A stretch of 4,480 nucleotides of DNA from a virus (lineage: Duplodnaviria; Heunggongvirae; Uroviricota; Caudoviricetes), in IMG/VR virus record IMGVR_UViG_2713896791_000006; one strand, written 5' to 3'. The notes beneath the pieces are model-generated. The model was not told where the DNA came from. It was given only the letters and a program-made list of their open reading frames with translations, and ran no database searches. Positions 2,252-3,961 of the stretch are shown in pieces (position 1 is the stretch's first letter; the number at the start of each line of letters is the position of its first letter). Made by a program: the position numbers and the translations under genes.

Positions 2252-3214
2252 ATGAGCAGCAAGCTTCATGGTCTTGTCTGGGAAGGGTGCGCCTTCACCG
2301 GCATGATCTTATCCAGGGTGGCGGTTATGGCCCGTCTTGCAGACTACAGCAATGACGAGGGCGTGTCATGGCCTGCCATTGAAACTATCCGGCGTCAGAT
2401 CGGTGCAAGAAGTGAATCCACAGTGAAATCGGCTATTGCAGAACTGGCGAAAGAGGGCTGGCTGACGAAGGAAGAGCGTAAGGTCGGTGGGCGTAATGTA
2501 AGCAATATCTATCGGCTTAATGTGGAAAAACTCGAAGCAGCTGCGGCGGCGGCGCGTGAGTCATATAAACCGAAAAGAAAAATTAGCCCGGCAAAAAATG
2601 ACCCGTTAACAGTTGACCCGTCAAATATTGACCCCTCAACGGTTGACCCGTCAAATTTTGATGGATCAACTGTTGATAAAAAACTGCCGATTAGGGGGGC
2701 GATGATTGACCCCGATCCGTCAGTATTAAAACCTGATCCGTCAGATAAAAGATCTTCTTGTCCGGACGCTTCGCAACCGGACCCGCAGACGGCTGAACAG
2801 GATTTTTTAACCCGACACCCTGACGCGGTTGTGTTCAGTGCGAAAAAACGCCAGTGGGGAAGTCAGGAAGATTTGGTGTGCGCACAGTGGATCTGGGGAC
2901 GAATCGTGAGTCTTTACGAGCAGGCGGCCAGCGATGATGGCGAGATCACTAGACCGAAAGAACCCAACTGGACAGCATGGGCCAATGACGTTCGCACAAT
3001 GCGGATGCTGGATGGCAGAACTCACAGACAAATTTGTGAAATGTTTGGGCGTCTCCAGCGGGATTCGTTCTGGGTAAAAAACATCATGAGTCCGGCAAAA
3101 CTCCGGGAAAAATGGGATGAACTGGTTATCCGCCTGGGGCGTTCGCCTGCGCAGCGTTGCGTGAATCACATTTCTGAACCGGACACTGAAATACCGCCGG
3201 GATTCAGGGGGTGA
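2252..3214 (+). CDS. ydaU: Replication initiator-like protein (YdaU-like): N-terminal winged-HTH, pentapeptide-repeat linker, DnaT-like C-terminal tail
   Basis: ATG at 2252 preceded by GGGGG (2243-2247); the track start at 2237 is GTG. N-terminal segment RLADYSNDEGVSWPAIETIRRQIGARSESTVKSAIAELAKEGWL resembles a winged-helix DNA-binding domain. The C-terminus ...VNHISEPDTEIPPGFRG closely resembles the C-terminus of E. coli DnaT as I recall it (...[17 protein letters not shown]). Sits immediately upstream of the DnaC-like gene. Confidence 0.8.
   Translation: MSSKLHGLVWEGCAFTGMILSRVAVMARLADYSNDEGVSWPAIETIRRQIGARSESTVKSAIAELAKEGWLTKEERKVGGRNVSNIYRLNVEKLEAAAAAARESYKPKRKISPAKNDPLTVDPSNIDPSTVDPSNFDGSTVDKKLPIRGAMIDPDPSVLKPDPSDKRSSCPDASQPDPQTAEQDFLTRHPDAVVFSAKKRQWGSQEDLVCAQWIWGRIVSLYEQAASDDGEITRPKEPNWTAWANDVRTMRMLDGRTHRQICEMFGRLQRDSFWVKNIMSPAKLREKWDELVIRLGRSPAQRCVNHISEPDTEIPPGFRG
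2598..2687. repeat. Tandem 15-bp iteron-like repeats (core TTGAC-CC-GTCAA) inside ydaU
   Basis: Units at 2598, 2613, 2628, 2643, 2658 and 2673: atgacccgttaacag, ttgacccgtcaaata, ttgacccctcaacgg, ttgacccgtcaaatt, ttgatggatcaactg, ttgataaaaaactgc. Each good unit has the inverted arms TTGAC/GTCAA. They encode pentapeptide repeats VDPSN/IDPST. Confidence 0.55.
2706..2754. repeat. Second repeat pair (GATCCGTCAG followed by A/T-rich tract) with clustered GATC sites
   Basis: GATCCGTCAG at 2714-2723 and 2736-2745, each followed by tattaaaa / ataaaag. GATC at 2664, 2714, 2736 and 2751, i.e. four sites in about 90 bp. Confidence 0.4.
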
Positions 3215-3220
3215 CGTGTC

Positions 3221-3961
3221 ATGAAAAACATTGCGGCAGTTGGGGTTCTTGAACGTATTCGCAGACTTGCACCACAGGGGGCGGTTCCACCGTACCGGAC
3301 GGTGGAGGAGTGGCGGGAATGGCAACTTGCTGAAGGACGAAAACGCAGCGAGGAGATTAACCGCCTGAATCATCAGGTGCGGGTTGAAAAAATCCTGAAC
3401 CGTGCGGGCATCCAGCCGCTTCACAGGAAGTGCTCATTCGGGAACTACCGGGTGCAGAACGACGGTCAGCGCCATGCTCTGAGCCAGGCGAAATCCATTG
3501 CCGATGAATTGATGACCGGATGTACAAACTTCGTGTTCAGCGGTAAACCTGGTACCGGTAAAAATCACCTGGCAGCAGCGATTGGCAATCGGCTGATGGC
3601 GAAGGGGAGAAGCGTGATTATCGTCACCGTGTCCGATGTCATGAGCGTGTTGCATGACGGCTACGACAACGGCCAGTCCGGGGAAAAATTTTTACAGGAG
3701 CTTTGTGGAGTTGACCTTCTGGTCCTTGATGAAATTGGCATGCAGCGGGATACGCGCAACGAGCAGGTCACGCTGAACCAGATAGTCGACCGCAGAACGG
3801 CTTCGATGCGTAGTGTCGGAATGCTGACGAACCTGAATCACGCAGCGATGAGCACACTCCTCGGAGATCGGGTGATGGACCGTATGACCATGAATGGTGG
3901 TCGTTGGGTGAATTTTAACTGGGAGAGCTGGCGGTCAAACGTTGGACGTCAGGGTATGTGA
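3221..3961 (+). CDS. ydaV: DnaC-like AAA+ helicase loader (YdaV-like, 246 aa)
   Basis: ATG at 3221 with AGGGGG (3206-3211) upstream. DnaC-type Walker A FSGKPGTGKNHLAAAIG (DNA 3542-3565 covers GKPGTGKN) and Walker B DLLVLDEIG. Similar along its whole length to E. coli DnaC as I recall it (e.g. CSFxNYRV, MLTNxN, VMDRM, NW[ED]S[WY]RS). Confidence 0.85.
   Translation: MKNIAAVGVLERIRRLAPQGAVPPYRTVEEWREWQLAEGRKRSEEINRLNHQVRVEKILNRAGIQPLHRKCSFGNYRVQNDGQRHALSQAKSIADELMTGCTNFVFSGKPGTGKNHLAAAIGNRLMAKGRSVIIVTVSDVMSVLHDGYDNGQSGEKFLQELCGVDLLVLDEIGMQRDTRNEQVTLNQIVDRRTASMRSVGMLTNLNHAAMSTLLGDRVMDRMTMNGGRWVNFNWESWRSNVGRQGM

Follow-up and report, generated by a model that had tools for sequence, protein, structure and literature searches.

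We analysed a 4,480-bp stretch of Caudoviricetes DNA (IMG/VR virus record IMGVR_UViG_2713896791_000006, hereafter the window) that carries a replication initiator gene, whose product ends in a tail resembling the C-terminus of the host protein DnaT, and directly behind it a gene for a DnaC-type helicase loader. The window contains the replication module of a lambdoid prophage, in which a lambda-O-family initiator is followed by a phage paralogue of DnaC. It is 100% identical to a lambdoid prophage adjoining potC in Escherichia coli O103:H2 12009, the same 100% match was found in many other genomes of Shiga toxin-producing E. coli, and 3869 of 5426 complete E. coli genomes match at least part of segment 2237–3961; the module itself is a very common prophage replication cassette. 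The genes are arranged in the order racR, a ydaS-like cro, a ydaT-like gene, the 320-aa initiator, a 246-aa ATPase and the start of a DUF1627 gene. The features of the initiator and loader are as follows.

2252–3214, plus strand: replication initiator of the lambda-O family, 320 aa (PHROG 391, HTH_36, lambda O-like C-terminal domain, RefSeq coding sequence WP_000095671)
2324–2464, plus strand: N-terminal winged helix-turn-helix (HTH) domain, HTH_36, aa 25–71, presumed to bind the iterons (Pfam PF13730)
2549–2779, plus strand: variable Pro/Asp/Ser-rich linker, aa ~100–176, encoded over the iteron region
2598–2669, no strand: five iterons with dyad symmetry (TTGACNNGTCAA-like), spaced at exactly 15 bp, the presumed origin, within the initiator gene
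2780–3139, plus strand: lambda-O-type helical C-terminal domain (CTD), aa 177–296 (similarity to lambda O)
3152–3211, plus strand: DnaT-type C-terminal tail QRCVNHISEPDTEIPPGFRG, aa 301–320, proposed docking peptide for DnaC or DnaB-DnaC (similarity to DnaT)
3215–3220, no strand: 6-nt spacer, also the recombination breakpoint of the loader cassette (divergence of contig L094)
3221–3961, plus strand: DnaC-family helicase loader, a YdaV-type phage paralogue, 246 aa (DnaC and YdaV alignments, profiles)
3542–3565, plus strand: Walker A motif GKPGTGKN, aa 108–115 of the loader (translation; same residues in the aligned E. coli DnaC)
3713–3739, plus strand: Walker B motif DLLVLDEIG, aa 165–173 of the loader (translation; aligned with DLLVIDEIG of DnaC)

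Anatomy of the initiator and the loader

The start codon of the initiator is the ATG at 2252, in agreement with RefSeq WP_000095671, the frame being open from a GTG at 2237 as well. PHROG 391, 'replication initiation O-like', covers the protein over its full length (E=2e-115). The HTH_36 domain scored 27.9 bits for a cut-off of 25, with a weak DnaD_N match in addition. In the family alignment the N-terminal ~95 aa are nearly invariant, and the linker shows low conservation and variable length. The CTD is 39% identical to lambda O 171–277 over 119 aa (E=5e-26), and this alignment ends exactly at the start of both tails. A repeat search of the window returned a 15-bp period together with a 33-nt inverted repeat at 2608–2674, and an iteron pattern search gave 8 matches versus 2.19 expected, a number reached by none of 200 shuffles. 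The DPS/VDPS peptide repeated in the linker is a by-product of these iterons. In ori-lambda the iterons lie within gene O, and those of the window are arranged likewise, so that the origin appears, from the sequence, to be located inside the initiator gene as in lambda. Both the N-terminal winged-HTH domain and the iterons to which the initial annotation had ascribed origin specificity were thus recovered.

The same annotation had called the first protein 'ydaU-like'. This identity was rejected: BLASTP against YdaU aligned the tail only, and DUF1376 (PF07120), for which Rac YdaU scores 92 bits, gave no match in the window initiator. A whole-protein match to the DnaT equivalog NF002770 (cut-off 201 bits) was also absent, the score being 16.8 bits only, and neither the three-helix single-stranded DNA (ssDNA)-binding CTD of DnaT (Pfam PF17948; PDB 4OU6/2RU8) nor its N-terminal oligomerisation domain and acidic PriB-binding linker was found in the initiator, whose BLASTP similarity to DnaT is restricted to the tail and whose N-terminus is HTH_36. 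Two features of a lambda-O module, the downstream lambda-P partner and the O-type tail, are missing from the window. As judged from these alignments, the initiator is a relative of lambda O and a homologue of neither YdaU nor DnaT, its DnaT homology being that of the tail only.

The C-terminal end of the initiator is QRCVNHISEPDTEIPPGFRG. In BLASTP, residues 301–320 aligned with DnaT 160–179 of E. coli K-12 with 14/20 residues identical and 18/20 positive (pairwise E=1e-7); the last 17 residues, which had been said to come near the DnaT C-terminus, hold 13 of these identities. The NCBIfam DnaT equivalog matched initiator residues 300–320 only, at profile positions 159–179 of 179 (16.8 bits, E=0.004), and in a PDB sequence search the DnaT chains 2RU8, 6AEP and 9ZBT matched the same 21 initiator residues only. 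The window tail is not low-complexity. The predicted similarity is genuine, but it is confined to the tail and extends to no domain-level homology.

The AlphaFold2 model showed the last 23 residues of the initiator to be disordered (predicted local distance difference test score, pLDDT, <50). In an alignment of DnaT sequences, eleven tail positions were invariant (R161, D162, N164, S167, D170, I173, P174, G176, F177, R178 and G179), and this invariance spans Enterobacterales genera. The C-terminus of DnaT has been described as a three-helix bundle followed by a '20-residue highly flexible tail' (PMC5778457). Disorder combined with invariance among the DnaT orthologues is what a docking motif typically shows. 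Removal of residues 154–179 from DnaT shifts its ssDNA affinity by only ~2.7-fold (PMC4132743), and DNA binding is therefore not the explanation of tail conservation. We defined the motif as ...[VIL][ND]xx[SP]xPDxxIPPGFRG-COOH, with the broader form ...ΦPxGFR[GST]-COOH.

The loader shares 49% identity with E. coli DnaC across 242 residues (1–241, E=2e-87) and is collinear with it over the full length, the N-terminal helicase-binding (DnaB-binding) region and both Walker motifs included. Its identity to Rac YdaV is 79%. The loader had been described beforehand as DnaC-like along its length, with GKPGTGKN as Walker A and DLLVLDEIG as Walker B, and the alignment with DnaC confirms all three statements. 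The best PDB match was DnaC 6QEL (252 bits over 2–241), against ~40 bits, in the AAA+ core only, for IS21-family IstB. On NCBIfam the loader scored 500.5 bits for PRK12377 (cut-off 389), 309.4 for the DnaC equivalog NF005931 (357) and 79.7 for IstB (200), and it also matched PHROG 50, 'DnaC-like helicase loader'. Because it passes PRK12377 and narrowly misses the DnaC equivalog, the loader is a phage paralogue and not an orthologue of DnaC. An IS21 IstB identity was rejected on the grounds that the score lies below the IstB equivalog cut-off and the similarity to IstB in the PDB is restricted to the AAA+ core; no transposase was found in the window or its genomic context. The layout mirrors chromosomal dnaT-dnaC in gene order, as had been proposed.

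Residue A86 of the loader (3476–3478) aligns with A84 of E. coli DnaC and is kept within GQxxALSxA. The dnaC1331 mutation (A84Y) blocks the PriA/PriB/DnaT pathway in vitro (PMC11087952). By this alignment, the surroundings of A84/A86 are a candidate neighbourhood for the tail-binding site proposed below.

Tails, loaders and the docking proposal

Close homologues of the initiator share its N-terminus and a lambda-O-type CTD ending in ...SPxKLREKWDELxLxL, after which the tails vary: the DnaT type, ...VDYSQIPAGFRG, ...VDYSLPENSGFR[ST], ...WN[ST]xE[GA]W[ER][DN][VT]L or ...NWIDGIEDDLVNAGVLP, the last resembling lambda O's own ...TDWIYGVDL. The DnaT-type tail in turn is carried by at least six unrelated bodies, namely DnaT, YdaU/DUF1376, HTH_36 with the lambda-O CTD (the window), P0070, L020 and L064. 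P0070 is a chimera of the window's N-terminal half with a different CTD and the tail. L064 (271 aa) joins another N-terminus to the DnaT bundle, its residues 178–271 being 63% identical to DnaT 86–179 (E=4e-40), and L020 and L109 (264–276 aa) combine DUF1376 with a DnaT bundle at ~50% identity to DnaT. When the tail was removed, the bodies of PDxxIPPGFRG open reading frames (ORFs) from phage contigs formed 14 clusters at 60% identity, and the tail alone also matched the C-termini of PHROGs 18526, 3729 and 1701. A profile of the DnaT CTD plus tail recovered only 146 clusters among 1.84 billion representatives; many of these were 250–580-aa initiator-like proteins, in which the DnaT bundle is paired with a GFRG tail, a lambda-O/P-type tail or a third, acidic class of tail. 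Tail sequence varies throughout, yet the ΦPxGFR[GST]-COOH core and the strict C-terminal position are kept. Such mixed combinations of tail, CTD and N-terminus indicate that the three parts reassort independently.

In L064, L020 and L109 the C-terminal ~95 residues are 50–63% identical to DnaT 85–179, and these loci are without a loader gene; the three proteins are the closest phage relatives of the DnaT C-terminal half seen here.

For a census of loaders, tails were picked by narrow DNA patterns in loci of up to ~14 kb. GFRG-type tails, in ~330 loci in all, were accompanied by a DnaC-type loader or by no phage loader, and by lambda P in none. Among 118 PDxxIPPGFRG ORFs from phage contigs, 59 had a DnaC-like gene, usually beginning 2–6 nt past the stop codon, 59 had no recognisable loader and 0 had lambda P, and ...DYSxxPxGFRG tails were found with neither loader type (102/102 evaluable loci). 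A sample of one genome per species yielded DnaT with dnaC in 85 cases, an initiator-like protein with a DnaC-type loader in 22, an initiator-like protein with nothing downstream in 7 and lambda P in 0; all tail-bearing organisms in it were Enterobacterales once three contigs that are likely mis-binned had been set aside. The other tails on homologous bodies were associated with a lambda-P-type loader in 110 of 112 loci and never with DnaC. For the class-B tail, ...WNxxE[GA]WxxxL, lambda P came next in 92/94 loci and DnaC in 0; the lambda-O-like class C, ...TDWIxG..., was paired with lambda P, lambda itself included; and the acidic class D, ...DWEFDQRPDDERL, was followed by a divergent lambda-P-family gene in 18/18 loci, DnaC again being found in 0. 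Class D initiators possess a true DnaT-type bundle, 42–63% identical to DnaT 84–158. In a two-by-two comparison, the lambda-O-type CTD and the DnaT-type bundle were each found both with GFRG tails, accompanied by a DnaC-type loader or none, and with other tails, accompanied by lambda P, which indicates that the loader goes with the tail and not with the fold.

The three contigs set aside, labelled as a 'Proteobacteria bacterium' metagenome-assembled genome (MAG; L464), a 'Bacillota bacterium' MAG (L498) and Chryseobacterium sp. (L507), carry an enterobacterial dnaT-dnaC or an E. coli-type prophage initiator. Where dnaT-dnaC is present, DnaC is 91–93% identical to that of E. coli, and contamination or mis-binning is the likely cause. 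In class D loci (L563, L562 and L567) the downstream lambda-P-family ORF reaches ~330 nt into the 3' end of the initiator gene in another frame, the first in-frame ATG of the lambda-P-family gene lying only ~0.2 kb upstream. From these reading frames, the linker- and tail-coding region of class D initiators may be dual-coding.

We consider it rather probable that the tail functions as a peptide for docking onto DnaC or onto DnaB-DnaC. The initiator would bind the iterons and open the origin in the manner of lambda O, and its C-terminal tail, not a folded domain, would decide which helicase-delivery system is captured. The GFRG tail would serve, as a short linear motif, to dock the initiator to the DnaC system. 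It would target the phage DnaC-like protein carrying host DnaB or, in phages without a loader gene, the host DnaB6-DnaC6 complex, and DnaC is the most likely site of contact. In replication restart, DnaB-DnaC would be delivered to the PriA-PriB-DnaT preprimosome through the identical tail of DnaT, and for lambda-P-type loaders the same job would fall to the other tails (...WN[ST]xE[GA]WxxxL, the lambda-O-like ...TDWIxG... and the acidic ...DWEFDQRPDDERL).

The distribution of the tail over different bodies bears on the alternative that it serves self-assembly or cooperative ssDNA binding, in a filament or trimer, and not partner recruitment. DnaT 84–153 binds dT30 ~2.7-fold more weakly and less cooperatively than DnaT 84–179 (PMC4132743), and DnaT 1–161 was reported to form dimers instead of trimers (PMC5778457), as expected for such a role. 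A tail borne by two unrelated C-terminal folds and by many different N-termini, however, cannot complement one specific oligomer interface; the tail is disordered in the AlphaFold2 model, goes unmentioned in the filament and PriA/PriB interfaces of the preprimosome structures (PMC13377028), and would on this explanation still leave the absence of lambda-P pairing unaccounted for. We regard a role in self-assembly as improbable.

In phages closely related to the window the loader gene proves to be optional. Contig L094 matches window 628–3219 at 99.6% identity and diverges within the 6-nt spacer; it has no DnaC-like gene, and a DUF977 gene comes next. Among the 78 evaluable near-identical initiators (at least 97% identity to that of the window over CTD plus tail), 54 were accompanied by a DnaC-like gene and 24 were without a loader; a search for relatives that was unbiased by the tail returned near-identical copies only. 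Given that near-identical initiators occur with and without the loader gene, the same initiator must also work with host DnaC. The system supplied by the host in Enterobacterales is DnaB-DnaC, and its normal route onto DNA away from oriC is through the host protein DnaT, which bears the same tail.

In the loader-less relatives the DUF977 gene stands directly 3' of the initiator, 40 nt past its stop. From this position, the DnaC-like and DUF1627 genes behave as one insertable block. The initiator and loader ORFs of the window are in the same frame, separated by TGA-CGT-GTC; no natural initiator-loader fusion was found. In a 308-aa protein from a Logan assembly (P0330), a YdaV-type loader is fused in frame with the N-terminal part of the downstream YdaW/DUF1627-like protein, probably a Rac variant produced by a frameshift or stop loss.

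A breakpoint only 5 nt past the stop codon of the tail is what would be expected if the tail were a functionless passenger travelling with DnaC-type cassettes because lambdoid recombination joints lie nearby. Lambdoid replication modules are highly mosaic, and the P0070-type chimeras, which have the tail in common, are joined exactly at ...QRCVNH; both observations would fit this. A passenger would hardly be kept in ~185 loader-less phage loci (59 + 102 + 24), hold eleven invariant positions in chromosomal DnaT, or diverge in sequence while retaining the ΦPxGFR[GST]-COOH core at the strict C-terminus, and we regard this explanation as extremely improbable.

The partner contacted by the tail could also be DnaB, or a composite DnaB-DnaC surface, if DnaC-type loaders left the site free and lambda P occupied or remodelled it. 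Half of the GFRG-tailed phage initiators are without a loader gene and need host proteins only, and the comparative data do not separate DnaB from DnaC as the contact. DnaB is universal, however, whereas the tail in our sample is confined to DnaC-bearing Enterobacterales; initiators that use lambda P need DnaB too and never bear the tail; and the tail-bearing gene adjoins a dnaC-family gene in the case of DnaT, Rac and the window. Docking on DnaB is accordingly a fairly unlikely alternative, and DnaC is favoured over DnaB because the tail is limited to DnaC-bearing bacteria and is absent from the lambda-P-dependent initiators that also require DnaB.

A further explanation is that the tail binds some other shared host factor (PriA, PriB, SSB-interacting proteins or primase) or is a degradation signal, the link to the loader being indirect. 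Lambda O is a known protease substrate. The acidic-then-I-P-x-x-F pattern of the tail bears a loose resemblance to the SSB C-terminal peptide DDDIPF. DnaT acts within the PriA-PriB complex (PMC13377028). On the other hand, PriA is contacted by the folded DnaT CTD and PriB by the acidic linker, neither of which is present in the window protein, and a degron or generic handle would not exclude lambda-P loaders on homologous initiators. We consider such a role highly improbable.

Several considerations nevertheless weigh against docking on the DnaC system. The association of tail and loader is correlative and could reflect a DnaC-dependent pathway without direct contact between the tail and DnaC, the tail reaching DnaB or another host factor instead. 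The samples consist mostly of related enterobacterial prophages and are hence not independent, a loader encoded beyond the ~14-kb loci could be missed, and the tail patterns were narrow. A physical contact of DnaT with DnaC or DnaB is undocumented despite decades of work (PMC5778457; PMC11087952), and the authors of the 2026 preprimosome structures prefer DnaT's N-terminal domain as the recruiter (PMC13377028).

The wider proposal is that the tail is a portable DnaB6-DnaC6 recruitment peptide and the missing link of the preprimosome, and that the C-terminal half of DnaT, like DnaC, was captured from or exchanged with phage initiators. We advance it tentatively, our confidence falling a little short of an even balance. 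If it holds, lambdoid initiators would follow a three-part code in which the N-terminus picks the origin, the CTD organises and the tail picks the loader. Hand-over from the preprimosome to DnaB-DnaC has been an open question for ~40 years and was still so in the Journal of Biological Chemistry in 2024 (PMC11087952) and in Nature Communications in 2026 (PMC13377028); the natural swaps of tail and loader point to the last 20 residues of DnaT, which are small and easily mutated, as the likely handle. For annotation, the tail of a lambdoid initiator would predict use of lambda P, of the phage's own DnaC or of host DnaC, and the DnaT C-terminal half would join the host replication parts shared with phages. 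Should the tail hypothesis fail, what remains is an ordinary, very common prophage module of O-like and DnaC-like genes.

Neighbouring genes and assembly gaps

Upstream of the initiator lie the following genes.

896–2229, upstream of the initiator: immunity and regulatory genes, early operon of the initiator (profile matches and RefSeq annotation)
896–1372, minus strand: racR (NCBIfam RacR equivalog, 246 bits)
1497–1820, plus strand: ydaS-like cro (Pfam YdaS_toxin/P22_Cro)
1804–2229, plus strand: ydaT-like gene (Pfam YdaT_toxin)

The genes in the cro-like and cII positions (1497–2229) match the Pfam families 'YdaS_toxin' and 'YdaT_toxin', and both are consistent in position and HTH content with ordinary lambdoid early regulators; a stretch of 17 nt (1804–1820) is shared by the two ORFs. 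A perfect 23-bp inverted repeat stands on either side of racR, at 781–803 (TTGTCAATAGGCTATGCCTAATA) and 1424–1446, and several palindrome-like TAGGC(N3-4)GCCTAAT sites occur on both sides of the gene as well (regions 759–808 and 1362–1468). From their sequence and placement, these repeats and palindromes look like putative operator sets for RacR/YdaS on both sides of the repressor gene. On the 3' side of the loader, a DUF1627 winged-HTH-like gene is followed by a DUF977 gene (window 3987–4480; L002 10751–11932).

Comparison with the identical O103:H2 genome showed that the 50-N runs at 578–627 and 4157–4206 are scaffold gaps and not biology. The first stands in for 38 bp of that genome. The second is flanked by two copies of one 61-bp piece (4096–4156 = 4207–4267), an overlap of the assembly repeated on either side of the gap. 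Any ORF called across the N runs is an artefact.

Comparison with known replication systems

DnaC-like loaders in lambdoid prophages are already known and routinely annotated, NCBI names some proteins 'DnaT-like ssDNA-binding domain-containing', and a phage origin of dnaC has been argued earlier (cited in PMC5509034). The step at which DnaB/DnaC is recruited has been called unknown, and a genetic interaction between dnaT and dnaC has been described (PMC13377028; PMC11087952); the 2026 Nature Communications paper on the preprimosome is silent on DnaT 160–179 (PMC13377028). No prior description came up when open-access papers were searched for the motif string and for DnaT in connection with lambdoid initiators; as the search was limited to such papers, absence is not proof. 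What is apparently new is the tail as a module apart from the bundle, common to unrelated initiators and segregating with DnaC-type versus lambda-P-type loading.

The module shares with lambda O-P an N-terminal DNA-binding domain, iterons in the initiator's own gene, a CTD with 39% identity and a helicase-delivery gene immediately next. In lambda O-P, the C-terminal part of the initiator is the partner-binding end. The window differs in that its last ~20 residues are of the DnaT type and its partner is a DnaC-family AAA+ loader, not lambda P (PF06992).

What the window has in common with E. coli dnaT-dnaC is an upstream product that ends in the tail motif (14/20) and a DnaC-family loader downstream. 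Unlike DnaT, the window protein has no oligomerisation domain, acidic PriB-binding linker or three-helix bundle, and by its iterons it would be origin-specific, whereas DnaT is recruited by PriA/PriB. Shared ancestry with the host primosome genes, which had been suggested for this prophage module, is supported through other phage proteins such as L064, with its 63% identity to DnaT 86–179, but not through the body of the window protein. The link between the two proteins is a transferable tail module.

Rac YdaU-YdaV resembles the window in its position in a racR-ydaS-ydaT early operon, in YdaV (79%) and in the YdaU tail, ...VNTVSLPDSAIPPGFRG; YdaU, however, belongs to DUF1376, and its body has no relation to that of the window initiator. 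The SSB C-terminal tail is, as a functional analogy only, likewise a short, conserved, disordered peptide that recruits replication and repair partners (PMC4129139), with a different sequence and a different proposed partner.

The DopC-DopE system of Cellvibrionales and Oceanospirillales was described by Brezellec et al. in 2017, who found DopC to consist of HTH_36 and a 'DnaT C-ter motif' and its gene to adjoin a lambda-P-like gene, in bacteria that lack DnaC (PMC5509034). That DnaT C-terminal sequence is present in O-like proteins had thus been recognised before. In DopC, as in the window initiator, the N-terminus is a lambda-O-like HTH_36 and an element derived from DnaT stands at the C-terminal end. 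In DopC this element is the DnaT_C domain (HHpred to 2RU8) and the partner is lambda-P-like, whereas the window initiator has the tail only, on a lambda-O-type domain, with a DnaC partner. We took enterobacterial phage proteins with a DnaT bundle and a lambda-P partner as stand-ins for DopC, and these differ from the window in ending in the acidic tail.

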